64,000 nt of DNA, from the NCBI GenBank assembly GCA_043806635.1, contig JAZDGT010000033.1:24336-88335 (forward strand). Direction: 5' to 3'. Made by a program: the position numbers and the translations under genes. The DNA is from Methanobacteriota archaeon. GTDB lineage: Archaea > Thermoplasmatota > E2 > DHVEG-1. Below are positions 3,846 through 34,745 of this stretch, piece after piece (position 1 is the stretch's first letter; each line of letters starts with the position of its first letter). The notes beneath the pieces were generated by a model. The model ran no database searches, was not told where the DNA came from, and saw nothing but the letters and a program-made list of their open reading frames with translations.

Positions 3846-3863
3846 TTTTTTTCTTTTTTTTTA
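3846..3863 (+). terminator. T-rich tract (archaeal-type terminator) after the vWA gene
   Basis: ttttttcttttttttt immediately 3' of the stop codon. Confidence 0.3.
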
Positions 3864-3914
3864 GTTTTGAGCGTTTTATCTCAACTATCATCTAGATGTG
3901 TTCAGGTACTACCA

Positions 3915-4163
3915 TTACGTTTTAACCTGGTTTTTTTTACGTTTTTTCCAGAAGGTGAAATAGAGATGAAGCGTCAGAAGAATAATGAGGGGGATGAGAA
4001 GATTTGAATGAATCTGGTATGAGGTGAGTTTTGATAGTCCCCCAAATGAGAGTGCTTCGATGACTTGATAGTTCGTAATACCCAGTCCTGTGATAATAAG
4101 GATGATGATGACGATGGTTAGGAGGAGATGCGTCCCTGTTTTGATAACTTGTAGTAGATTCAT
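3915..4163 (-). CDS. Small integral membrane protein (2-3 TM), downstream partner of the Mo-oxidoreductase-like gene
   Basis: 82-aa hydrophobic ORF 17 nt downstream of the 4180..4833 gene on the same strand. Confidence 0.4.
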   Translation of the reverse strand: MNLLQVIKTGTHLLLTIVIIILIITGLGITNYQVIEALSFGGLSKLTSYQIHSNLLIPLIILLTLHLYFTFWKKRKKNQVKT

Positions 4164-5256: not shown

Positions 5257-6288
5257 ATGATGCAGAACACGCAATTCGGAAGCGATAACCACTCAGGAGT
5301 CCACCCTGATATTTTAAAAGCCATCAATGAGGCAAACACAGGATACACAATAGCATACGGTTTAGATCCGTGGACACAACAAGGTATCCAAAAGTTAAAA
5401 GAATTTTTTGGAAAGGATTGCGACGCGTATTTCCTGTATAATGGGACTGCAGCTAATATCCTCGGGTTAAAGAGTGTCACTGATTCGTTTCACTCCATCT
5501 TCTGCGCAGAAACCGCTCATCTCAACGTCCATGAATGTTGCGGGCCAGAGAATTTTATTGGGTGCAAACTTGTTACTATACCAACTAAGGATGGGAAACT
5601 CACCGTTGATCTACTTCAACCATATGTCGTCGGAGTTGGGGATCCTCATATGGCACAACCAAAAATCGTTTCTATTACGCAGGCGACGGAACGAGGAACT
5701 GTGTATACGCCTCAGGAAATAAAAAAATTGTCTCAGTTTGTACATCAACATCATATGTTGTTACACATGGATGGAGCACGGTTGTGCAACGCAGCAGCGT
5801 CTTTGAAGATCGGATTAAATGATATGTGCGGCAAGTGTGGTGTTGATGTGCTCTCGTTTGGGGGAACAAAAAATGGGATCATGTTTGGTGAAGCTGTTGT
5901 GTTTTTTGATAAAAAGTTATCAAAGAATTTTGAGTTTATCAGGAAACAAGGGATGCAGCTAGCAAGTAAGATGAGGTATATTTCTGCGCAGTATATCGCG
6001 TTCCTCTCGAATGAGTTGTGGTTACGAAACGCGCAACATGCGAACGAGATGGCGCAGTTGCTTGCCAGATCGCTTAAGGATATGCCTGGGGTTAAAATTA
6101 CACAAAAAATACAGGCGAATATGGTATTTGCCATCATTCCGAAGCAGTGTATTCCTCTGTTACAGAAGGATTATTATTTTCATCGATTCAATGAGCATAC
6201 GTCTGAGGTGAGATTGATGTGTTCGTTTACTACTCAGCGGGATGATGTTCTTCGTTTTGTGCAGACGATTCGTACATCTCTCCGTTGA
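5257..6288 (+). CDS. ltaE: Low-specificity L-threonine aldolase (PLP-dependent)
   Basis: PLP-lysine motif LSFGGTKNG and overall threonine-aldolase architecture, 343 aa. Confidence 0.8.
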   Translation: MMQNTQFGSDNHSGVHPDILKAINEANTGYTIAYGLDPWTQQGIQKLKEFFGKDCDAYFLYNGTAANILGLKSVTDSFHSIFCAETAHLNVHECCGPENFIGCKLVTIPTKDGKLTVDLLQPYVVGVGDPHMAQPKIVSITQATERGTVYTPQEIKKLSQFVHQHHMLLHMDGARLCNAAASLKIGLNDMCGKCGVDVLSFGGTKNGIMFGEAVVFFDKKLSKNFEFIRKQGMQLASKMRYISAQYIAFLSNELWLRNAQHANEMAQLLARSLKDMPGVKITQKIQANMVFAIIPKQCIPLLQKDYYFHRFNEHTSEVRLMCSFTTQRDDVLRFVQTIRTSLR

Positions 6289-8248: not shown

Positions 8249-8366
8249 AGAGAATCATCTTCCCTTTAATTTCTGAGGGGGATATAACGGTGTAGTATGA
8301 TAAATTTCTTTTTCCCTTCTCAGGTTACATAGGGTTTTTTAGTGTTTCCCTTTTTTTTAAAATAAG

Positions 8367-8437
8367 CAGCCCCGGGCGGATTTGAACCGCCGACGTTGGC
8401 TCCAAAGGCCAAAATGTTGCCACTACACCACGGGGCT
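8367..8437 (-). tRNA. tRNA-Gln (anticodon UUG)
   Basis: Reverse complement folds as a cloverleaf. Acceptor AGCCCCG/CGGGGCT with G73. Anticodon arm TTGGC-cTTTGga-GCCAA. T-loop GTTCAAATC. Confidence 0.8.
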
Positions 8438-8535
8438 ACATGCGCATACCGGGAATCTCTGAATTTATTTAAGAGTATGCTTTTTCTTTTCTCCTTATTC
8501 AGCAGGGTATCATATGAACAAATTTTTTCAGGAAA

Positions 8536-10236
8536 TCATGTACTCTTTTTTTGTTGCTGTTGTTGTATTTTCGCCCAGGTATCCCGCAGTTCAACGGTTC
8601 TGTTCAGAATCATCTTCTTATCGGTGGTGTGTGGGTCGACACAGAAATACCCGAGGCGTTCAAACTGGAATCGATCAAAATGTTTTAGCGTACGAACCAC
8701 CGGTTCTACCTTGCAGGACTGAATGATTGTAAGAGAATGCGGGTTGAGGAACTCTTTAAAATCCTTGTCTTTCTGTCCCGCGGGATCCTGAACCGTAAAG
8801 AGTCTATCGTAGAGGCGCACCTCAGCATACTGTGCATGCGGAGCGGATACCCAATGTATCGTTGATTTCACCTTCCGTCCATCTGGTGCGTATCCGCCTT
8901 TTGTTGCTGGGTCATAGGTGCATCGTAGTTCAACGATCTCCCCGTTTTTCTTGATAACGTCGTTGCATCGGATAAAATAGGCGTACCTGAGCCGGACCTC
9001 ACGACCCGGGGCAAGACGATAAAACTTGTTCGGCGGGTTCTCCATGAAATCATCCTGCTCAATATACAAAATTTTAGAAAACGGGACTTTACGTGATCCC
9101 ATCGTTGGATCCTCAGGGTTATTCACTGCTTCTATCTCCTCTGTTTGGTCTTCTGGGTAGTTCTTTACTACTATCTTTAGTGGATGGAGTACACCCATGT
9201 ACCGTGGGGATGTTTTATTCAGATCCTCTCGTATGCAATATTCAAGGAAATCAAAATCCACTATACTGTTGATTTTTGCGACACCAATACGTTTACAGAA
9301 ACCCCTGATCGCGGATGGTGAATACCCGCGGCGGCGCATCCCACTAATCGTCGGCAGTCGAGGATCATCCCATCCGTTCACATGTTTCCCTTCTACTAGC
9401 TGCAACAGCATCCGTTTACTCATCACTGTAAACGTTAGATTCAGGCGGGCGAACTCGATCTGCTGCGGATGATACACCCCGAGTTCATCAAGGAACCAAT
9501 CATATAACGGTCGATGATTCTCAAACTCAAGCGTGCAAATCGAATGCGTAATCCCCTCAACTGAATCCTCAAGCCCATGCGCCCAGTCATACATAGGGTA
9601 GATGCACCAGGTGTCTCCTGTTCGGTGATGACTGGCGTGGAGACTTCGATACATGACGGGGTCTCGCATGTTCAGATTCGGATGTGCCATGTCGATTTTT
9701 GCTCGGAGTACTTTTTCTCCGTCAGCGTACTCGCCGTTTTTCATCCGCTGAAACAAATCCCGGTTTTCTTCAACGGGTCGATCGCGATAGGGGCTGTTTT
9801 TACCTGGTTTCGTTAACGTCCCTCGATTCGTAGTGATTTCTTCGGCGGTTTGATCATCCACGTAGGCTTTCCCTTTTTTCACGAGGTCAATCGCGTAATC
9901 GTACATTTGTTGGAAATAATCTGATGCGAAAAACAGTCGATCCTCCCAGTCGAACCCGAGCCATTTCACATTCTCGATAATTGATTTGACGTATTCCTGT
10001 TCCTCTTTCGCAGGGTTGGTATCATCGAATCGAAGGTTGCATAATCCCCTGTACTCCTCTGCGATACCGAAATTCAGACAAATCGATTTCGCATGACCAA
10101 TATGGAGATACCCGTTTGGCTCTGGAGGAAATCGCGTGTGAACCTGGCCTTTATATTTCTTTGTTTTCAGGTCTTCATCGATAATCTCTCGAATAAAATC
10201 TTTTGTGACACTCTCAGATGTTTCCATGTTTATCAA
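8536..10236 (-). CDS. glnS: Glutaminyl-tRNA synthetase, class I, bacterial type
   Basis: HIGH motif (YLHIGHAKS), KMSKS variant (VMSKR), full-length colinearity with bacterial GlnRS including the C-terminal anticodon-binding beta-barrels (…[12 protein letters not shown]). 566 aa. Confidence 0.9.
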
Positions 10237-10282
10237 CTCTTCTTCCTCACCTTATTTGATTATTTCTAGGAGGATTTAGAGA

Positions 10283-10354
10283 CAGCCCCGACCAGATTCG
10301 AACTGGTGACTAGAGATCCAGAGTCTCTTATGTTAACCGCTACACTACGGGGCT
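10283..10354 (-). tRNA. tRNA-Gln (anticodon CUG)
   Basis: Reverse complement: AGCCCCG acceptor, D-arm GTGTAGCGGTTAAC, anticodon arm AGAGA-cTCTGga-TCTCT, T-arm ACCAG-TTCGAAT-CTGGT, G73. Confidence 0.8.
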
Positions 10355-10469
10355 ATAATACGGGATGGTTGTTTTGCAAGGCAGAAGATAAATTCGCTAT
10401 ATATAACCTTTAATATCGTATCAAACCGTGGCTCCTATTTTTTTCTCATCAGAGGCATCTATGGTTTTT

Positions 10470-10892
10470 TTAGGATTTTGAATCAATGGTTTGATAGGAT
10501 GTGGATATCGTGACTGATGGTTTCAGCATAGCTGAGACTGGGCAATATTTTTGTTGTGATAATTCGATTGCTCGTTCCAGATGGGTGGTATTGAGTTGAT
10601 GGCCAGCGAAGATGTAGGTGAGATGAATTTTTGTGAATACTTTTGGGTGAGTCTCGGATCGTTCTGCGGTGATCTGAATCTCAAAACCTTGAAGCTGAAC
10701 ACGTTTTTTTGTTTAAATCGAGATGACGTCACTCCCGGTGCAGCTTCCTAACGCTATTAATACGAGTTCCATGGGGTGTGCAGCAGTGTCTGTACCGGAA
10801 ACCTCTTTTGGTCCATCAATTACTACAGTATAGTTGCTTTCTGATGTCCCGATGAACAAGAGTCCTTTGACGTGTTTTACTGTTGCTTTCAT
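10470..10892 (-). pseudogene. OsmC/Ohr-family peroxiredoxin-like gene interrupted by a frameshift in an A7/T7 homopolymer
   Basis: The N-terminal 59 aa (MKATVKHVKG…HPMELVLIALGSCTGSDVISI) stop at 10713-10715. The OsmC C-terminus (KKRVQLQGFEIQITAERSETHPKVFTKIHLTY…LERAIELSQQKYCPVSAMLK) continues in another frame, ending at 10470. The shift lies at the T7 run 10704-10710. The six-frame ORF 10523..10732 is the third, wrong frame. Confidence 0.7.
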
Positions 10893-11034
10893 AGTTCTTT
10901 TTCACCTTTTCAGGTAGTATCATTGATTCAGGGTATAACTTCATTGGTGATATAAATAAAAGAGAGGAGTATGAGAGTAAATAGGTTTGAAAACACTGTG
11001 TATTCGTGTTCGTAAAGGATTTTCGCGTGAAAAA

Positions 11035-11047
11035 CATTTAAAAAAGG
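11035..11047 (+). promoter_or_regulatory. Putative TATA-like element (catttaaaaaagg) about 27 nt upstream of tRNA-Val
   Basis: Spacing appropriate for an archaeal tRNA promoter. Confidence 0.25.
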
Positions 11048-11073
11048 ATACGATGTCCCTTTGTACAACATTT

Positions 11074-11146
11074 GGGCCAGTGGTCTAGTGGTTATGACGT
11101 CGCGCTTACAACGCGGAGATCGCCTGTTCAATTCCGGCCTGGCCCA
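11074..11146 (+). tRNA. tRNA-Val (anticodon UAC)
   Basis: Acceptor GGGCCAG/CTGGCCC with A73. Anticodon arm TCGCG-cTTACaa-CGCGG. T-loop TTCAATT. Confidence 0.85.
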
Positions 11147-11204
11147 CTAAGCTCTCTTGGAGGGTTTTCAGTCGAAACCAAGGTATTTTGGCTGTTTGTT
11201 GGTT

Positions 11205-12506
11205 TTAGCGTGTTTTCCTCTTCGAATTTTTTATTGTATTGGAATTGTTTTTTAAAAGTAACCATTTCCATACTGGTACTACATGAATTATTTTTTTATC
11301 TAAGTTGATTTCTTCTTCCTGATCCTGAGTCAATAATAACCCTTCTTTAAGACGAAACGTTGTTAATGCTTCAAGCAAACCTTTCAGTTCTCGATCTCGA
11401 TTTGTTTCATCGAGTACATAGCAGACTTGTATAGCATAAGTTATTTTTGTTCCATTTTTGATGATAAAATCACACTGCTGGGATCCACTGAAATAATACA
11501 CTTCTTGCTTTCTTCTTCGGAGATCAATGAATACAAGATTTTCTAACAACCTCCCTTTGTTAAGAGAGATATTCATCCCGCAAACCTGATGAAACACAGG
11601 ATCGACTACATAGATCTTTTTCGGTGCATTTAGTTGCTTCCTGAGGGAATAATCAAATTTGTGCACTTCAAAAAAGAGATATGAATTGTGGAGGTATGAG
11701 ATGTACTCTTTGACGGTAATAGCATTTGAAAGTTTTAATGTATTTTTTAAGGAATTATACGTGTACGGAGATGCCATATTGGTTACTAACAGATTGACTA
11801 ACTCTCGTAGCACATGCTGTTGCTTGATTAGATATCGAGCAACGATATCGCGGTAAAGGATATTTTCATAGATGGTCTTCACATATTCGATATCGTTGTT
11901 CTTTAGATACTCAGGGATTCCTCCTTTATTCAGATATTCGTTGAATTGACGAACGAGTAATGCTTTTTTTTCTGTGAGGTAAAACCAATTTTTCTGAGGC
12001 GTTATTTGGTGGAGTTGAAGAAATTCATGGAATGAAAAGGGATATACTTCAAATGATTTGTATCGACCGGTTAGTCGTGTTCCAAATTCGTAGCTAAGCA
12101 GTGAAGCATTTGAACCAGTTATAACAATTTTTTTTCCTTGATCTTGGAGTCGTCTTACAAAAGTCTCGAATTGAGGTATGTTTTGAATTTCGTCAAAGAA
12201 GTATATGGAGGCATTTCTGTATATTTCTAGTAATACTTCGTGCAGGGATTCAAATTCAGAAGCTTGAAAATCAAGAAAACGTTCATCTTCGAAATTTACG
12301 TAACAACTTGGTTTGACCTTTTGCATGAGTTGACGGAGAAGGGTCGACTTTCCACTTCGACGCAAGCCCGTAAGAATAAGAATTCTATTATCTGAGGACC
12401 AAGGAAGTATCTCATGGATAAGTTCTCGAGGTATTGTACGTTCTTCTCTCATGAGGGTTATTTGTTGTTGTATGAGTATTTGACGAAGGATTTCTTTAGA
12501 TATCAT
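11205..12506 (-). CDS. AAA+ ATPase (archaeal ATPase / AAA_14 + DUF4143-like)
   Basis: Walker A GLRRSGKST, Walker B-like IYFFDEIQ, C-terminal DUF4143-like region. 433 aa. Confidence 0.75.
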   Translation of the reverse strand: MISKEILRQILIQQQITLMREERTIPRELIHEILPWSSDNRILILTGLRRSGKSTLLRQLMQKVKPSCYVNFEDERFLDFQASEFESLHEVLLEIYRNASIYFFDEIQNIPQFETFVRRLQDQGKKIVITGSNASLLSYEFGTRLTGRYKSFEVYPFSFHEFLQLHQITPQKNWFYLTEKKALLVRQFNEYLNKGGIPEYLKNNDIEYVKTIYENILYRDIVARYLIKQQHVLRELVNLLVTNMASPYTYNSLKNTLKLSNAITVKEYISYLHNSYLFFEVHKFDYSLRKQLNAPKKIYVVDPVFHQVCGMNISLNKGRLLENLVFIDLRRRKQEVYYFSGSQQCDFIIKNGTKITYAIQVCYVLDETNRDRELKGLLEALTTFRLKEGLLLTQDQEEEINLDKKIIHVVPVWKWLLLKNNSNTIKNSKRKTR

Positions 12507-12629
12507 ACTAAATGGTAATTAGTAAAAATATTTAAATGTTTTCATTACTAATTAGTATAAATTCTAAGATATTCATTTGTAAATATTTGGTTTAACAGAC
12601 CAAATTATAGCATTTTTTTCTGGTTTGCT

Positions 12630-12701
12630 GGGCCAAATGCAAGCGGGAAAAGAAAAATACTTACAACGCGGAGATTGCCTGTTCAATTCCGGCTTGGCCC
12701 A
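12630..12701 (+). repeat. Degenerate tRNA-Val copy: intact 3' half (anticodon loop to 3' end, 2 mismatches) with a 5' acceptor strand carrying a compensatory change
   Basis: cttacaacgcggagattgcctgttcaattccggcttggccca matches tRNA-Val positions 32-73. 5' gggccaa pairs with 3' ttggccc, but no D-arm or 5' anticodon stem. Confidence 0.6.
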
Positions 12702-12790
12702 TTTTCATTTCCTCCTAATGTGAGGTAAACGAATTTTATTAGAAGGATTTATAAGAACTTTATGAATTATTTATTGAGGAGGAGAACCGG

Positions 12791-14173
12791 ATGGAAAACG
12801 AAAAAATTATGATTGGAGGTATTGTTTTTTTACTGATTGTTTCAATGTGCGGATGTCTTTCTTCCAACAATGTGAACGCTGAATACCTTCGAACGAAAAT
12901 TATTGAAAAATTCAATAATGTTCAGAGTTATACATATCGTTCATCCGGTAATATGACGAGGCCGGGGTCAGATTTACCAGGTTATGGGCTATATTCTTTG
13001 AACGGTAACGTTAATGTTCTTCAAAAGCATGTAAAATCCTATATGGACATTGAACTTACAAATGAATTGATTGAATATTATTTGAAGCATAATATCACCA
13101 TTACTAATGAGACGTTCAATTTTTTTCATCAATATTTTTATTATGAAAATGAAACGCTGTATAAATCCTTTGATAATCGTACTTGGGATGGGACCCAACA
13201 CGGGTCGTTAAATTGGTATGCCTTTGCGTTCTTAGATCGACAATTTCGTTTTATTTTAGAAAATGCGACGTTATCAAAGTTAGCCGATGAGGCCATCGAC
13301 GGCTGTACATGTTACACATTACAGGTCACCCCAAAACTAGAAAATCTTACTCTGAAACCTGTATATATGGATTTATTATTCCCGCTCCAAAATGAGAGGA
13401 GGAGTATATACTTTCTCTTTGAACAAAATTATAGCACCGATATAAAATATTGGATTGACAAAGATACTTATCTTATAAAAAAAATGTGTATCAAAGCAAG
13501 TAACAATTTTACATATTCCTACAATTCAAGTAAGAATATAACCCGACATTCATTGTCAAATTATGAGACGGAAATCTTATTTTATAATTACGACCAAGAA
13601 GATTCTGTTGAGTCACCCTGGCAAATATATATACAACAAGCCAGCGAATTACTCAATTATCTAAATTACTCTAATACGAGATTTGGTTTTGGTATGAATC
13701 TACCCTATATTTGGATAGTCGATGAAAATAGTATGTACGGTTCGAGTGTTGGTCTGGTTCCTACGTTTTCGTTACGAGATCAATCAATAACCAATCTCTC
13801 CTTAATAATCGGCCCGCCCTCACGTTCAAGCGGGAATCTGAGCGAAGAAGTTCAGAATAAATTAATGGATATTGGTGAAAAATTAAATGATACTACCCAT
13901 TCACAATATTATATAAATTATACCTTAGATAGAAACGGACCTCTAAATGTTAACGGGATGAATGCATACGAATTTGTTACATCGATGACCACGAACAACA
14001 TCACAATAAAAACAAGGGATCTGTTCATAGAAAAAGATGAGAGATTATTTGATATTCTATTTTATGGTTACGAGGAACTATATAATGAATATCTTCCAGA
14101 AATTAATGATTGCATCAACACCTCATTTACAATAATTGCTCCATACTTTGAAATCTATGAAATAAATCTATGA
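12791..14173 (+). CDS. Secreted or membrane-anchored hypothetical protein, very rich in N-glycosylation sequons
   Basis: N-terminal hydrophobic segment with CGC. More than 20 NxS/T sequons. 460 aa with no catalytic motif. Confidence 0.5.
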   Translation: MENEKIMIGGIVFLLIVSMCGCLSSNNVNAEYLRTKIIEKFNNVQSYTYRSSGNMTRPGSDLPGYGLYSLNGNVNVLQKHVKSYMDIELTNELIEYYLKHNITITNETFNFFHQYFYYENETLYKSFDNRTWDGTQHGSLNWYAFAFLDRQFRFILENATLSKLADEAIDGCTCYTLQVTPKLENLTLKPVYMDLLFPLQNERRSIYFLFEQNYSTDIKYWIDKDTYLIKKMCIKASNNFTYSYNSSKNITRHSLSNYETEILFYNYDQEDSVESPWQIYIQQASELLNYLNYSNTRFGFGMNLPYIWIVDENSMYGSSVGLVPTFSLRDQSITNLSLIIGPPSRSSGNLSEEVQNKLMDIGEKLNDTTHSQYYINYTLDRNGPLNVNGMNAYEFVTSMTTNNITIKTRDLFIEKDERLFDILFYGYEELYNEYLPEINDCINTSFTIIAPYFEIYEINL

Positions 14174-14254
14174 AATATGAGTACTAATACAGACATTATT
14201 TTACTTAAGAAAAAAATTGAATTTCATATTTCCTTATGTCGACCTATGTGTAAA

Positions 14255-14323
14255 AACAAGGTTAGGTTGACGTATCCCCAGATAGGAAGCGGGTAATTCC
14301 GGCCTGGCCCACTAACCTCTCTC
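14255..14323 (+). repeat. Cassette-boundary repeat: 57-nt element ending in a copy of the tRNA-Val 3' end plus 3' flank
   Basis: 14296-14323 (aattccggcctggcccactaacctctct) matches the tRNA-Val 3' end and downstream flank with 1 mismatch. 14255-14316 is about 75% identical to 15975-16032. Confidence 0.55.
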
Positions 14324-14345
14324 GAAAGATTTGATGTTAAATCAT

Positions 14346-14768
14346 CTATCGTTGTCTATATAAAAAATAATTCATCTCCTTTGTGTTGAGAATATGAACT
14401 ATTGATTGTCGTCTAAGTTTTTTATCATCAGACCATAAAAAACTCGTAGGATAAGCTAGAGCGCAAGCAATGAAAAGCACATCGTCAGGATCGATATCTT
14501 TAACGATCTCATATGCTTGTTTTTTATATGGAATAAGCGAACTTGTTGGAACGATTAATACTTTTCGTAAGAGATACGAAAGTAATGAGTTAAATTCCTT
14601 TGAAGTCATCTTTGATTTTTTCAGAAGTTCTCTTTTATGTTTCTCCATTTCTTCAAAGATATACGATGGAAAAAGAAAGGTTCCTTCATAATCTAAAATC
14701 AATCTTCTTGTTAGTGAATCTTTGATGAGTGCGGAAAAAAGAATGTTCGAATCAATAACGATATTCAA
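14346..14768 (-). CDS. vapC: PIN-domain ribonuclease toxin (VapC-like)
   Basis: N-terminal IVIDSN with acidic residues spaced as in PIN domains. 140 aa. 4-nt overlap with the upstream antitoxin ORF. Confidence 0.65.
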   Translation of the reverse strand: MNIVIDSNILFSALIKDSLTRRLILDYEGTFLFPSYIFEEMEKHKRELLKKSKMTSKEFNSLLSYLLRKVLIVPTSSLIPYKKQAYEIVKDIDPDDVLFIACALAYPTSFLWSDDKKLRRQSIVHILNTKEMNYFLYRQR

Positions 14769-14995
14769 CTAAGGAACCTCTTAGATGCTGATGCTTTTAT
14801 TTTTTTATTAAATGTTTTTACATCATCTTCAGTGAGTTTGCTTTTTCGTGCAAGTTTCTCAGCCATTTGAAGAAATTCTAATTTTTCGATAATGGCTTTT
14901 CGTGCGATTTCACTCCATTTCACTTCAGAGAAATGTTTCATTTGTTTATGAATAGTATCTGGTACTGAAAGAGTTATATTTCCCATACATATCAC
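14765..14995 (-). CDS. vapB: Antitoxin (VapB-like, putative ribbon-helix-helix)
   Basis: 76-aa ORF overlapping the PIN gene start. ITLSVPDTIHKQMK strand-helix pattern. Confidence 0.5.
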   Translation of the reverse strand: MICMGNITLSVPDTIHKQMKHFSEVKWSEIARKAIIEKLEFLQMAEKLARKSKLTEDDVKTFNKKIKASASKRFLS

Positions 14996-15353
14996 TACAA
15001 ATAAATATGTGTGTTCACATATTTAAACATTTCTTATTGAAGCTCTTTATCTTACAATTCGTCTATAATAGTTTTATAAGATTGTTGAAAAATCAATAAC
15101 TAACATCGGAAAGATATTTAGATATAAAGAGGGAGCATACCATATCTATGCCGGCAAACAGATCGCAAATGCAGCACATTTTGAAAATATAGAAAAAGTA
15201 AGAGTAGATTATTATCCTATTGATAAAAAGATCGTGATTAGAAAAATAACGGAATTATAAAATTATCATAAAACTTTAAAATTTTTAATTTTTAATAACA
15301 TAAAAAAGTAACATGTTAGAAAAATATAAATTCTAATAACAGATAGTTTTTTA

Positions 15354-15974
15354 TTGAAAGGATGGGAAAATACGAACTGGAAAGAATTCTTTAAACCAAA
15401 TATAAAAAAGATTCTATTTACTGCCGTATTTTTTTTCTTAATTGGAATTTGGTTTGTTTTTCCAATATTGAATATTTTGTTACCCAATAGCGAGGGTTCA
15501 TTTGGGATACGAATTTTAGTTTTAATAATATCATTCATCCCTCCTGTATTTCTTGCATATATATTAGGTAGTTTTTATTTGATATTAGCTGAAATGATTA
15601 CCAAAAAAGTATCATTGTTAAAATTCAATGAAAAAAAAATTGCCTTAGGAATTGGTGTGTTTGTATTTGCTGTTTTTTTCCATGGCATAACGTATAGCTT
15701 GAATTTCCCGATCTTAAGAGTTATTGATTATATCCTTCTTCCATATATGTTGGTTACTGACATCTGGATGCGTTATGTGTCTCACCCGTATCTATATACT
15801 CTTCCTCCGGGAGCAGGTTTTGATATTACTTTTTCAATATCAGACATTATAATTTTAATACTATTTTTTGCCCTTAGTATCATTTATTGGTATGCAATAG
15901 GATGTGTAATTTTTTATTATTTTAAAAAATTCAAAAATAGAACTTTAAATGAAGATATGTCAACCAATAAGTAA
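15354..15974 (+). CDS. Polytopic membrane protein of unknown function
   Basis: 206 aa with about 5 hydrophobic helices. Confidence 0.45.
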   Translation: MKGWENTNWKEFFKPNIKKILFTAVFFFLIGIWFVFPILNILLPNSEGSFGIRILVLIISFIPPVFLAYILGSFYLILAEMITKKVSLLKFNEKKIALGIGVFVFAVFFHGITYSLNFPILRVIDYILLPYMLVTDIWMRYVSHPYLYTLPPGAGFDITFSISDIIILILFFALSIIYWYAIGCVIFYYFKKFKNRTLNEDMSTNK

Positions 15975-16032
15975 AAACAGGGGAAGGTTGACGCACCTCC
16001 AGATAGGAATAGAGCAATATCGGCCTGGCCCA
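15975..16032 (+). repeat. Cassette-boundary repeat (second copy of the 57-nt element, ending tcggcctggccca)
   Basis: Direct repeat of 14255-14316. Its 3' end matches the tRNA-Val acceptor/T-arm. Confidence 0.5.
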
Positions 16033-16109
16033 TTTTTAACAAGTAGAAAAAAAATTATTGAAAAAACATTTTTAAAGAAAGAGAAGATGACAAGGTAAAG
16101 GGTTCTTAA

Positions 16110-16349
16110 ATGAAATTAAATAAACCATTAAAAATTGAAGGTATTTTTTTAGGGATCTGTATTGTTTTAATTATCATTGGTATTGCAATGTATTTTACAA
16201 ATCAATACACTACATCTCATGGAGGACTTAATTTGTGGTTTGTATTCGTTTATGTCACAACTTCTCCTCTGTTTATTATTCTTGTAATTGCCGCTTTAAT
16301 ATATTGGTTCTGGAGAGTAAAAAAATATCAGACTAAAGCATCAGATTAA
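16110..16349 (+). CDS. Small membrane protein (2 TM)
   Basis: 79-aa hydrophobic ORF. Confidence 0.35.
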   Translation: MKLNKPLKIEGIFLGICIVLIIIGIAMYFTNQYTTSHGGLNLWFVFVYVTTSPLFIILVIAALIYWFWRVKKYQTKASD

Positions 16350-16454
16350 CGCATTATTATCTGTTGAAAATGTAATTGCGACCTAGCTTATTTTTTGGTA
16401 TTAGGATAATAAATTAAAAAAAGAGAGTTAAGGATATGGCAAAAGTGTATATCC

Positions 16455-17027
16455 TTAATCATATTGTTTAATTAGAGATGATGATCGTATGTTTTCGAAT
16501 TTGGCTGTATCGTTTAATATCCGCCATTCTTGTTCTGCGCCATGGGCGATTTCATCCCAGGAGTAGATAGGTTGGGCACTGATGGTGATGACTCCTTTGA
16601 TTACGAGTTTTTCGTTTTCAAAGATGAGTATCTCAACTTTGTAGCTATTATTGGATAGAACGAGTGGTATCTCGATTTCTGCTGTTGAATCTGCTGCAAT
16701 GTTTCCTATTGTAACCGTGTTTTTGTATACCGCAAGATTATCACTGGTCTCAATCACATAGGCGGTGGCTTTTATGTTTCCTGATTCTTTTGTCCATATG
16801 TTTGTTAAATACAGTGTACATGTTATATTGACCGTGTCATTGGTTTCATCGGTTTTCAGAAGATAGGTTGCATCAACAAAAAGATGCTCTTCTGGAAAAA
16901 CAGGTTCCGCTCTTATTCTTAAAATCATTGCTGCAAAGATACCGACGACGATGATTATGATCGCCACTATCGTGATGACGAGTACTCCAGCTTTTTTTGT
17001 TTTTGGGTTCATTTCCATAGAAATCAC
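16455..17027 (-). CDS. Membrane-anchored extracellular protein of unknown function
   Basis: Single N-terminal TM helix, then a beta-rich soluble domain. 190 aa. Confidence 0.45.
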   Translation of the reverse strand: MISMEMNPKTKKAGVLVITIVAIIIIVVGIFAAMILRIRAEPVFPEEHLFVDATYLLKTDETNDTVNITCTLYLTNIWTKESGNIKATAYVIETSDNLAVYKNTVTIGNIAADSTAEIEIPLVLSNNSYKVEILIFENEKLVIKGVITISAQPIYSWDEIAHGAEQEWRILNDTAKFENIRSSSLIKQYD

Positions 17028-17134
17028 AATTTTTATTTATACTTAAGAATATATAAAGGGTGGGAAAATGTTCGTAAAAATACGAACAAAAACCAGTAAT
17101 ATTTAAATCATGATAACCTAATTGAGATTGAAGA

Positions 17135-17848
17135 ATGACAAAAATATCACTTGAACTTGAGGATATCAAAGCATTAGCATCTGACTCCAGACTCGAGATT
17201 CTCAAAGCTCTTGATGGAAAAAAACTGAATTTACAAGATGTGACCAGGATTACAAAGCTCAACAAAGCAACACTTCATGTCCATTTATCAAAACTTCTCG
17301 AGGCCGGGTTCATCAAAAAGAAAGAACGAGAAGGACATAAATGGGTCTACTATCAACTCACCTGGAAAGGAGAATGCCTCCTGCATCCAGAAAACACGAG
17401 AATCGTCGTCCTTTTTAGTATCACCTTTATTTCACTATTCGCAGGAATCATCCAATTAATCAACTATGCTAAAGGAGCCATTGTAGGAGTTGCTCAGACG
17501 TTACCGAACGAAGAAACGACACAAATCTTTGCTATCCCCAGAACTGTTAATGCGACCTCAGCGTATCAAAATGTATTTCAAAATATAGCAAATGTTCCTA
17601 CCCACAATCAGACACTCCTACAGTTATCCCAAGCACTCAACAGCAACGCTGATATCAAAGGACTTGTGGGTAACACGTTTTCAGATGAAGCAATCCAATG
17701 GTCTGCCGCTCCAGATAGCACTAATCTTGTAGCCTCAATCCAAGATCCTACCTTACTCTATCTTGGTCTCGTGTGTCTCACGATCTGTGTTATCTTTTTA
17801 AGCATAGGCCTTTGGAGACTATGGAAAAATAGAATACCAGAACTCTAA
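17135..17848 (+). CDS. ArsR-family winged-helix transcription regulator fused to a membrane-spanning/extracellular C-terminal region
   Basis: N-terminal ALASDSRLEILKAL…LNLQDVTRITKLNKATLHVHLSKLLEAGFI HTH. TM helix near residue 100 and a second TM at the C-terminus. Confidence 0.6.
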   Translation: MTKISLELEDIKALASDSRLEILKALDGKKLNLQDVTRITKLNKATLHVHLSKLLEAGFIKKKEREGHKWVYYQLTWKGECLLHPENTRIVVLFSITFISLFAGIIQLINYAKGAIVGVAQTLPNEETTQIFAIPRTVNATSAYQNVFQNIANVPTHNQTLLQLSQALNSNADIKGLVGNTFSDEAIQWSAAPDSTNLVASIQDPTLLYLGLVCLTICVIFLSIGLWRLWKNRIPEL

Positions 17849-18152
17849 AAACATTTATGATAAAACCATTATAACCTACGTAAGGATCGTATAGGAAAAA
17901 AATAATTCTCGGTTTTTAATCTCCGTCATCGGGATCCCAGAAATCAGGGAAATCGGGGTGAGGTCTTGGTCGTTCAGGTTCTGGTGATATAGGCGTCTTC
18001 ATAGGTAATCCCTTCATTCACGGTTTTTTATCTGAGTCTCTACTATTATAAGTGCATTTGTATATTTATTATCTTTTCTATCGAAAAAAACAGGTACCAA
18101 CCCTCAAAAAAAAGAATACGAACTATTCTTCTCCTAGCAACAACCTAATCAA

Positions 18153-18491
18153 TCATTCATCTTTCAATTTAATACTGCATAACGCCATCGCCAGAGACAC
18201 ATCCAACTTACTCGTTAACGGCAGCAACCGTGACACTACCTCTTCCTCGAACACATTCGTAGGTCTCCGGCATAACAATAAATCCCTATCTCGATGAAAC
18301 AAATCAGCAATCTCACAACATTCCTCAGAATCCAACTTCCTTTCTTTCAGAACATCCACTTCTTTCTCCCAATATGAAATAAACTCTTGAAGATCCTGCA
18401 TCCAGGTTTCATCACTACCTGTTATCATAGAAACTCCCTGATAACTCATAGGAGATAGTACTACATAAAATTTTGTATACACACGACCCAC
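18153..18491 (-). CDS. Hypothetical protein
   Basis: ORF only, no motif. Confidence 0.25.
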   Translation of the reverse strand: MGRVYTKFYVVLSPMSYQGVSMITGSDETWMQDLQEFISYWEKEVDVLKERKLDSEECCEIADLFHRDRDLLLCRRPTNVFEEEVVSRLLPLTSKLDVSLAMALCSIKLKDE

Positions 18492-18623
18492 AGAAGGAAA
18501 AAAATAGGCAATACCTCCTATTCATCTCATCATATTCCTTACGTTCCTTACGAACGCAGAAAATTACATAAACGCCTCCAATCTCCATACTCGAAACACA
18601 ATCATAAAAAATACGTACGATAG

Positions 18624-18696
18624 AGCCCCGTGGTGTAGCGGTCAATCATTCGGGATTCTGGATCCCGCGACAGTGGTTCGAATCCACTCGGGGCTA
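18624..18696 (+). tRNA. tRNA-Gln (anticodon CUG), canonical archaeal-type sequence
   Basis: AGCCCCGTGGTGTAGCGG… with anticodon arm CGGGA-tTCTGga-TCCCG, T-arm GGTTCGAATCC, acceptor CGGGGCT, A73. Confidence 0.85.
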
Positions 18697-18731
18697 TCAC
18701 TCCCGACTCCTCTTTTTGATACAAAATGTGG

Positions 18732-26570: not shown

Positions 26571-26654
26571 GCGGGGATGGCCCAGCCCGGCAAGGCGATG
26601 GATTGCTAATCCATTGGTCTCACGACCTCGGGAGTTCAAATCTCCCTCCCCGCG
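26571..26654 (+). tRNA. tRNA-Ser (anticodon GCU) with long variable arm
   Basis: Acceptor GCGGGGA/TCCCCGC with G73. Anticodon arm ATGGA-ttGCTaa-TCCAT. Variable arm GGTCTCACGACC. T-arm GGGAG-TTCAAAT-CTCCC. Confidence 0.85.
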
Positions 26655-26900
26655 CTAATTATTAACACGGTTATTTAACAGGAGAAAAATACAATATTTA
26701 TTGGTTGATTGGTACTTAAATCCCAACGGAAGTATGCTATTTATTAACATACAGATTTATGAAAGAATATACACAACTCTGAGGACTTTTCCCAACTTTC
26801 CTTATCCATCTACAGACCGACAGATACTATTTTATCAGGGAAATTAATACTTTCATTTATCCCCTATAATGATATTTATAGGATAGGAGATACTATCCCA

Positions 26901-34600: not shown

Positions 34601-34745
34601 TCAACAGGTATAAAAACAAATTTTTTACCAGTAAAACGGAGTCGAAATCCCACTCCCCGCGCTAATTATTAGCACGGTTAGTTAACGGAAGGGAAATACA
34701 ATTTTTTTATAGTAAATTGACGCTCAAATCCCGACGGGATCATCC
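34601..34745 (+). repeat. Cassette-boundary repeat, copy b, fused to a 105-nt direct repeat of the tRNA-Ser 3' end and its downstream flank
   Basis: 34639-34745 is about 75-85% identical to 26631-26735 (ggagt(t)c(g/a)aaatc…ccccgcgctaattatta(g/a)cacggtta(g/t)ttaac…). The left arm 34601-34638 matches copies a, c and d. Confidence 0.6.

Follow-up and report, generated by a model that had tools for sequence, protein, structure and literature searches.

Most integration sites in archaea are tRNA genes, archaeal elements integrate in tandem at one locus, and integrated elements are often found without an integrase, which was presumably lost after integration (PMC8371274). Tyrosine-recombinase elements build arrays by re-using one site (PMC6563490). 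Here, we describe the DNA downstream of a tRNA-Val(UAC) gene in a 64,000-nt stretch from an uncultured Methanobacteriota archaeon (GTDB lineage Archaea; Thermoplasmatota; E2; DHVEG-1; GenBank assembly GCA_043806635.1, contig JAZDGT010000033.1, positions 24,336–88,335 of the forward strand)—referred to as the window, within which all positions are counted. Very likely, the DNA from 11147 to about 18150 is an island that arose by repeated site-specific integration into the 3′ part of this tRNA gene, followed by loss of the integrases. Repeats, integrase stubs, a family of element arms, intact counterparts and near-empty sites in relatives, and a foreign composition are the direct observations behind this reading.

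Arrays of integrated mobile genetic elements at tRNA genes have been described in Thaumarchaeota, Methanococcales, and Thermococcales (PMC6563490, PMC8371274). They resemble the tRNA-Val locus in the targeting of the 3′ part of a tRNA gene that is restored upon integration, in direct repeats of the attachment site (att) for each element, in re-use of the site with frequent integrase loss, and in low-GC DNA with ORFan-rich cargo. The differences lie in the host—here an uncultured sediment archaeon of Thermoplasmatota type—and in the lack of an integrase in all elements of the window. Moreover, at least four integrase subtypes use the tRNA 3′ part here and a fifth acts on the 5′ side; the 3′-side subtypes of this lineage leave copies that start at the D-loop, the T-loop, or the 3′ acceptor strand.

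The tRNA-Val gene occupies 11074–11146 on the plus strand and represents the intact integration target at the attL side of the array. ARAGORN and Rfam agree on this tRNA-Val(TAC) call (11074–11146/7; 61.4 bits for the Rfam tRNA model), and, as in tRNA-targeting tyrosine-recombinase elements generally, the intact tRNA stands restored at one end of the array. For comparison, metagenome contigs were scanned with the 42-nt core described below, which yielded 120 loci (numbered with an L here), mostly from sediment; all comparison sequences are metagenomic contigs. Nearly all of these loci (about 115) hold an identical copy of the 73-nt tRNA sequence. The Rfam alignment flags a non-Watson–Crick U52–C62 pair in the T stem and another such pair in the D stem, which are kept in all related loci because the sequence is identical.

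Downstream of the gene and on the same strand, its 3′ part recurs in three partial copies—C1, C2, and C3—with 3′ ends at 12701, 14311, and 16032, so that direct att-core repeats bound each element. C1 (12660–12701; 42 nt) covers tRNA positions 32–73, which reach from the anticodon loop to the discriminator base, with two mismatches (BLAST E 3e-14). C2 (14295–14322) spans 28 nt with one mismatch (E 3e-8) and consists of 17 nt of tRNA and 11 nt of flank; a weaker similarity of 87% identity extends to 14332. C3 (16021–16032) matches in 12 of 12 nt, or alternatively in 13 of 15 when counted from 16018. Taken alone it is not significant (E 0.39), yet it becomes so in context because the arm that precedes it is itself a repeat. 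With up to three mismatches, the 15-mer TTCCGGCCTGGCCCA at the tRNA 3′ terminus occurs five times in the window against 0.6 expected, and none of 100 shuffles gave five occurrences. A preliminary description of this stretch, made from the letters and open reading frames (ORFs) without database searches, had reported three same-strand copies, and BLAST together with the shuffle test confirms them.

A second repeat (14235–14311 versus 15956–16032; 77 nt, 79% identity, E 2e-14) leads into C2 and C3. Its arm-only match amounts to 49/68, compared with a window-wide background maximum of 33–35/68. The repeat aligns with the sequence in front of the attR core of L116, L117, L175, and L203 and, more loosely, of L125 and L167; the common layout comprises inverted TGTCAAC ... 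GGTTGAC motifs, a short hairpin-prone stretch, and then AATTCCGGCCTGGCCCA. The 7.9-kb element of L116 has this arm at one end and, at the other, an intact integrase of the type described below as B; the second repeat is hence taken, from these alignments, as the conserved right-end arm (P arm) of the type-B element family. Arm and core together would form the attR of cassette 2 (14235–14311, plus strand, with C2 at 14295–14311), as assigned by alignment with the attR arms of relatives, and the attR of cassette 3 (15956–16032, plus strand, with C3 at 16018/21–16032), as assigned by arm alignment. The C2 arm carries inverted GTCGAC...GTTGAC motifs and is 74% identical to the attR arm of L203. 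A structured RNA was considered for the P arm and dismissed, as the C2 copy alone folds notably (z = −2.0) and the C3 copy does not; we treat the arm as putative protein-binding DNA. The preliminary description had noted this repeat with a length of about 57 nt as a frame of the last cassette. The repeat itself stands; it is 77 nt long, however, and a type-B P arm rather than an extra frame.

Integrases are found at this site in the relatives. In 18 of the 120 loci, a minus-strand ORF abuts the tRNA-Val 3′ end, and each of them is a member of the Phage_integrase family (with E values of 3e-36 for type B and 6e-13 for type A). The proteins are Xer-like, with sub-threshold XerA_Arch matches (156–162 bits versus a cut-off of 220) and 4a8e and 5hxy as closest PDB structures. 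They fall into four C-terminal subtypes. Type A (about 444 aa, ending in SPREVSGPGRN) and type D (315 aa, ending in ENGPGRN) overlap tRNA-Val by 18 nt; the stop codon of type B (308 aa, ending in DADTRRK) lies 4 nt past the discriminator; and type C (297 aa, ending in KKTFEF) ends 35 nt past the tRNA. Intact Phage_integrase genes occupy this position in at least 14 related loci, and five relatives (L103, L116, L167, L153, and L203) exemplify an integrase that is intact while integrated.

No intact integrase gene is present anywhere in the 64-kb window, just as the preliminary description had it; its wider statement that there is no integrase nevertheless overlooks three stubs. The type-A stub next to the tRNA (11131–11223, minus strand; tblastn and protein alignment) comprises the last 31 codons, ending in EEENTLKPTNSQNTLVSTENPPRELSGPGRN and the stop, and the complement of the tRNA-Val 3′ end supplies its final codons. 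The type-A C-terminus matches 11253–11131 on the minus strand at E 3e-13 in tblastn and also 14337–14296 on the same strand. Compared with the intact integrase gene of L132, the window is 97% identical at the nucleotide level up to 11223, where an abrupt break follows. Behind C1 lies a type-B stub of 3 codons (12702–12716, minus strand; RRK, then a stop codon 4 nt past the discriminator): reverse-complemented, the C1 flank TTTTCATTTCCTCCT gives the type-B RRK end, and the similarity ends after 15 nt. An identical run of 15 nt flanks the tRNA in L174 and L116, at the end of the intact 308-aa integrase gene there. Behind C2, a second type-A stub of about 9 codons (14312–14337, minus strand) reads SREVS and then GPGRN and the stop from the core. 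Judged by its sequence, the short conserved flank common to tRNA-Val and C2 is thus the 3′ end of a type-A integrase gene. C2 had previously been described as the tRNA 3′ end plus 8 nt of native flank; of this, the copy holds, but the flank measures 11 nt and is integrase-derived, not native.

Two observations extend the picture of these integrases in the relatives. A fifth type, E, is encoded on the plus strand (335–364 aa, Phage_integrase) and ends just before the tRNA-Val 5′ end in L125 and L168. Copies of the 5′ part (tRNA positions 1–22/27) are located 0.7–5 kb upstream of tRNA-Val in 14 loci: L125 (4718–8269), L168 (2065–3182), L087, L093, L112, L135, L144, L150, L157, L165, L180, L190, L195, and L200. 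In the type-A attR arms of L130 (about 5830–5978) and L168 (about 3860–4011), the minus-strand integrase frame runs on into the P arm as GPGRT(H/Y)Q(S/I)QQE(R/K)..., with 16 to more than 45 codons before any stop. Hence, the C-terminal tail encoded by an excised type-A circle would be longer than that of the integrated form ending in GPGRN.

Comparison of the chromosomal locus delimits the island. The downstream flanks of tRNA-Val are extremely diverse among the 120 loci, and beyond them the conserved order tRNA-Val ... (tRNA-Gln)–metallophosphoesterase–prefoldin–FtsY–UMP kinase can be recognized. Across 16 syntenic genomes, in which the site is empty or differently occupied, tRNA-Val and its conserved neighbours are separated by 95 nt to 7.6 kb, the window being the largest: the distance to the phosphoesterase is 95 nt in L095, about 240 nt (at most 243 nt) in L163 and L185, 1.2–4 kb in ten other loci, and 7,586 nt in the window. 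The right boundary is set by orf112 (18153–18491, minus strand), whose homologue lies 21–58 nt from tRNA-Val in L162, L152, and L169 and, in L119 and L203, immediately follows the final att copy. This makes orf112 the ancestral downstream neighbour of the tRNA and all of 11147 to about 18150 inserted DNA; the array does not end at 16032, as had been proposed. Its composition is unlike that of the host core, with a GC content of 0.29–0.36 across the four segments S1–S4 (11.1–18.2 kb) versus 0.43–0.45 in the flanking core. The alignment with related genomes suggested in the preliminary description hence bears out its reading: the intervening segments are missing from the same locus in syntenic relatives, and the site is near-empty in some relatives. 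As for the host, the relatives of the replication factor C large subunit of the window are from Thermoplasmatota metagenome-assembled genomes, with identities of at most 63%. A search of a viral contig collection for an attP-like sequence, with the 25-nt core and the arm motif as queries, gave no match.

The segments themselves carry the cargo that had been described from the sequence—an ATPase, a sequon-rich 460-aa protein, and a vapBC pair with a membrane protein—and family searches as well as a sequon count support these assignments. S1 holds the orphan AAA_14 + DUF4143 ATPase of cassette 1 (11205–12506, minus strand; Pfam E 4.7e-36 and 3.1e-19), whose ORF reads into the type-A integrase stub. 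A homologue with 80% aa identity is found at the same position in L099, and in L138 the ATPase 3′ end, a C-terminal remnant, lies directly against tRNA-Val. Orthologous att-bounded units with an ATPase alone (about 408 aa, plus strand) occur in L119 (969–2315) and L203 (11481–12824). These ATPases are 79% identical in aa—with AAA_14 taken from the gene-call Pfam annotation of L203 only—and in both units the end is formed by a decayed att copy that borders directly on the orf112 homologue. Together with cassette 1 of the window, this makes two independent ATPase-only units at the hot spot.

S1 ends in C1, which is part of a larger unit, a pseudo-tRNA relic with the att copy (12629–12701, plus strand, containing the 42-nt copy). 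The unit has the size of a tRNA, and its first 8 nt, TGGGCCAA, are the exact complement of its mutated last 8 nt, TTGGCCCA; this pairing equals a compensatory G7A/C66T change, with a post-hoc chance of about 1.5e-4. Positions 8–30 are unrelated to tRNA-Val (6/23 matches), and the homology to L099 stops at 12627, exactly where the unit begins. A functional or intron-bearing tRNA was ruled out for C1, as there is no cloverleaf, the folding z score is −1.2, and no tRNA model matches; its sole Rfam match is a weak full-length match to an antisense tRNA-like model.

S2 (12702–14311) consists of the B stub, a cargo gene, and the B arm. The cargo is a 460-aa secreted or lipoprotein-like protein (12791–14173, plus strand) that has no Pfam or NCBIfam match, carries 18 N-X-S/T sequons versus 7.0 ± 2.3 in shuffles, and is nearly an ORFan, with only 3 homologues among 5.8 billion proteins. 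One homologue, at 55% aa identity, is the cargo of an intact type-B element of 2.76 kb in L203/L204/L205, at the same chromosomal locus as in the window (syntenic genome). In L203, tRNA-Val (8651–8723) is followed by the 308-aa integrase (8726–9652, minus strand), a 59-aa gene (9763–9942), the homologue of the 460-aa cargo (10001–11389), and the type-B arm with attR, which ends at 11481. By this comparison, S2 is read as an L203-type element minus the integrase and the small gene.

S3 begins with the second type-A stub, followed by vapC (PIN_2; 14346–14768, minus strand) and a vapB-like antitoxin gene (14765–14995, minus strand), both assigned by family search. In L168, a homologous VapBC pair (64% and 83% aa identity) lies in the opposite orientation within an 829-nt integrase-less unit beside tRNA-Val. 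As a precisely bounded mobile cassette, vapBC was rejected: the L168 homology covers the two ORFs and the operator only, in opposite orientation and with no terminal repeats. Further downstream lies a homologue of a conserved gene of about 59 aa (15087–15262, plus strand; no Pfam family, and here without a canonical start codon), which in elements of types B, C, and D is found immediately upstream of the integrase. Its product shares 66–82% aa identity with the copies in L116, L182, L153, L167, L082, L175, and L101, and its DNA is 83% identical to the L203 59-aa gene (9769–9942). The cargo of cassette 3 is completed by a 206-aa multi-pass membrane protein of no family (15354–15974, plus strand), which precedes the type-B arm and C3.

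S4 (16033–18152) is the low-GC segment (0.36) between C3 and orf112. It encodes a 79-aa membrane ORF (16110–16349), a DUF7490 protein (16455–17027, minus strand), and a membrane protein with an ArsR helix-turn-helix domain (17135–17848, plus strand). In L154, the DUF7490–ArsR block follows directly after tRNA-Val.

A succession of ordinary integrations very likely accounts for this arrangement, and the related loci back the earlier proposal of serial integration at a tRNA att site with the copies delimiting foreign segments. Each element would encode an Xer-like tyrosine recombinase on the strand opposite to the tRNA, with its 3′ end abutting or overlapping the att core, and its attP would hold a copy of the tRNA-Val 3′ part. 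Recombination of attP with the chromosomal tRNA would then restore the tRNA at the left (attL) and leave a partial copy with a P arm at the right (attR). Any newcomer would enter the functional tRNA-Val and displace older elements outward, resulting in the array tRNA, S1, C1, S2, C2, S3, C3, S4. Deletions would finally have trimmed the integrases to stubs of 31 codons, 3 codons, and about 9 codons, whereby the cargo became fixed in the chromosome—gene capture in the literature. What survived of the cargo is the AAA+ ATPase, the secreted glycoprotein, VapBC, and the membrane proteins; the toxin–antitoxin pair probably helps its remnant to persist.

The standard attP × attB model (PMC8371274) also underlies a rule for reading each attR: the arm would stem from the element to its left, and the flank would represent the former neighbour of the tRNA at the time of insertion. 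From this rule we infer an order of events with at least five integrations. S4 would have been present first, because the DUF7490/ArsR block abuts tRNA-Val directly in L154. A type-B element might then have brought the right part of S3—the 59-aa gene, the 206-aa membrane protein, the arm, and C3—and a later type-A element its left part with VapBC, comparable to the 829-nt VapBC-only type-A remnant in L168; deletions would have joined the two into S3. A second type-B element would have delivered the glycoprotein cargo, the arm, and C2 of S2, followed by the ATPase element of S1 with its long 42-nt core, which left C1. The stub at 11131–11223 would be what remains of the last type-A element.

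Several points weigh against this history. Activity at this locus we infer from relatives, as no integrase is intact in the window, and since all comparison sequences are metagenomic, there is a residual chance of assembly chimeras. The 42-nt, anticodon-loop-type core of C1 fits none of the integrase types found, nor does this history account for the acceptor complement upstream of C1. S3 is a mosaic of A stub, VapBC, type-B small gene, and type-B arm, and a search of 16033–18700 with up to two mismatches revealed no terminal att copy for S4. Finally, L099 shares, in diverged form, the junction at which the A stub meets the ATPase, and the stub part nearest the tRNA is 97% identical to a live integrase; a history with a single deletion fits this poorly. 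The stub at 11131–11223 may have been refreshed through recombination with type-A elements that arrived later.

Other explanations for the locus have to be weighed against repeated integration and decay. In a local tandem duplication of the tRNA 3′ region or of intergenic DNA, or with chance similarity, the genes in between would be native. The weakness of C3 as a 12-nt match on its own would suit this, but the shuffles did not reach the observed copy number, the copies are associated with integrase stubs and element arms, and the segments between them are mutually unrelated, low in GC, missing from the same locus in syntenic relatives, and each found elsewhere in a different context, which leaves this explanation a negligible probability. 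Capture of the type known from Sulfolobus spindle-shaped viruses (SSV) leads to the same outcome as here, foreign genes fixed beside a tRNA since the element has lost the ability to excise on its own (She et al. 2001 Nature 409:478; PMC7253208). There, the att site lies inside the integrase gene, and the suicidal integration leaves the N-terminal half of the split gene at one end of the element and the C-terminal half at the other. The type-A ORF does overlap the tRNA-Val 3′ end by 18 nt, and a reconstructed attP would read on into the P arm; this overlap, however, involves the last 6 codons only and leaves the catalytic domain (Pfam positions 240–392 of 444 aa) undivided. Moreover, the type-B stop codon lies outside the tRNA, full-length integrase genes are present in the integrated state, and no N-terminal integrase halves are found beside the attR copies of the window. 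No att site within an ORF splits a gene here; the integrases were lost by deletion rather than at an internal att site, and an SSV-type origin is very improbable. The integrases are of the non-suicidal kind, type II in the scheme of She et al. They resemble those of pNOB8-type elements, being Xer-like, following the lambda paradigm, and—in the relatives—remaining intact after integration next to one att site. This likeness is one of general family assignments, and the att identity blocks here measure 12–17 nt (types A and B) instead of 40–50 bp, with the gene 3′ end abutting the tRNA end (type B) or overlapping it by 6 codons (type A).

A further alternative takes the att-flanked integrase-less units as non-autonomous cassettes that are still moved, in trans or in cis, by integrases that related elements within the cell provide. 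Elements with att flanks but no genes for recombination are known as cis-mobilizable elements (CIMEs) from accretion–mobilization in Streptococcus. S1–S3 likewise appear as units with putative attL and attR flanks and no recombinase of their own, and as with CIMEs, such units stand in tandem with integrase-bearing relatives at one tRNA-type site. Over all loci, 17 att-bounded units were counted, of which 5 have an integrase (2.8–7.9 kb); the other 12 are small (0.55–4.6 kb, 1–2 genes), and their cargo includes VapBC, HEPN/MNT, and AbiEii/AbiEi pairs as well as ATPases. A unit in L109 was discarded as a chance 11-mer within an ORF. Besides this majority of small units, the P arms with inverted GTCAAC/GTTGAC motifs, kept in the integrase-less units of the window, would fit continued mobility, as would a difference between L201 and L202. 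These loci are 99.95% identical over 2,097 nt and differ by a 542-nt, one-gene, integrase-less unit bounded exactly at the att core, which hints that integrase-less units might still be mobilized in trans and is the sole hint of this kind. The shared part (L201 2825–4921, L202 643–2739) lies downstream of the att core in contigs from different samples; the extra L202 unit (101–642) holds one 122-aa membrane/zinc-ribbon-like ORF and a type-B-like arm, with no integrase; and directly upstream of the tRNA, 8 of 27 nt are different between the two contigs. If the units were indeed mobile, the very recent gain or loss of the 542-nt unit between L201 and L202 would be one exchange event, and tRNA-Val would be a cassette platform, functionally analogous to the exchange of cassettes in integrons or CIMEs but archaeal and anchored at a tRNA.

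On the contrary, a single polymorphism gives neither direction nor mechanism, and short contigs over-represent short units. Integrase stubs are present in all integrase-less units examined, and their lengths differ (about 5 to 93 nt), which therefore points to independent in situ deletions rather than purpose-built cassettes. The state of stub plus cargo recurs in L168 (VapBC), L194 (AbiE), and L125, and toxin–antitoxin addiction plausibly favours the retention of such units. Cargo genes occur in both orientations with their own promoters; VapBC in particular is reversed between the window and L168, which directional site-specific insertion would not yield. Mobile cassettes are hence rather unlikely. 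The CIME system is, in addition, bacterial and linked to conjugative elements, as compared with the one suggestive L201/L202 polymorphism here. Integron arrays share with this locus small, mostly single-gene units, recombination sites with inverted repeats, and Xer-like tyrosine recombinases. However, integrons have IntI with attI and a Pc promoter at the head of promoterless, co-oriented attC cassettes. The tRNA-Val array shows neither: its head is a tRNA, with no resident integrase beside it, no attI, and no Pc, and its repeat is a tRNA-derived core with an arm instead of attC. Furthermore, the genes lie in both orientations with own promoters, and the stubs indicate that each unit was once autonomous.

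Two other tRNA regions of the window may be considered. The preliminary description had seen a parallel array at tRNA-Ser(GCU) (26571–26655) and took the two as suggesting a genome-wide mechanism. The sequence does not bear this parallel out: only one diverged copy was found, 8 kb downstream (34653–34686; 34 nt at 94%, made up of T-arm-like sequence, the 3′ strand of the acceptor, and 24 nt of flank), and the intervening genes are metabolic ones of normal GC—a DUF488 gene, an aminotransferase, aldehyde:ferredoxin oxidoreductase, and homoserine dehydrogenase. No integrase or stub was recognized in this region; beyond the copy lies a low-GC block (34.3–44 kb) with Mrp antiporter subunits, a glycosyltransferase, and CorA. 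A special genome-wide mechanism is not needed either, as ordinary tyrosine-recombinase integration and decay suffice.

Upstream of tRNA-Val, the glutaminyl-tRNA synthetase (GlnRS; 8366–10355 region) is of bacterial type, with best matches in bacteria at identities of at most 70% and one Thermoplasmata match at 63%; tried as a synteny anchor, this bacterial-type gene returned no close relatives in a single scan of genome contigs. It is flanked by two tRNA-Gln genes (UUG and CUG) with a G discriminator base, and the third tRNA-Gln(CUG) (18624–18696), in the conserved archaeal neighbourhood, has an A there. The bacterial-type enzyme and these discriminator bases suggest that GlnRS was acquired together with its cognate tRNAs by an archaeon that would otherwise use transamidation. 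L126 carries a 98.6% copy of the tRNA-Gln at 10281 about 1.5 kb upstream of its tRNA-Val. An OsmC-family gene (10490–10899, minus strand) appears to be a pseudogene, its open part being a 59-aa N-terminal ORF (10713–10892); the region of about 410 nt is homologous to related loci (L157, L083, and L092), among them L099, in which the gene is intact and encodes 140 aa.

As a phenomenon, this is a textbook case: the locus is a decayed tandem array and not a new cassette system, and its novelty is low because tandem integration and integrase loss are already documented in archaea. For annotators, the lesson is that an integrase stub can show up as a short conserved flank behind a tRNA, and an element arm as an orphan repeat. 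The reading explains a 7-kb low-GC stretch of an uncultured archaeal genome—with several genes that have no family assignment, one of them nearly an ORFan—as captured mobile DNA with exact boundaries and a readable insertion history. It also marks tRNA-Val as an integration hot spot in sediment Thermoplasmatota, used by several integrase subtypes on both sides of the tRNA.

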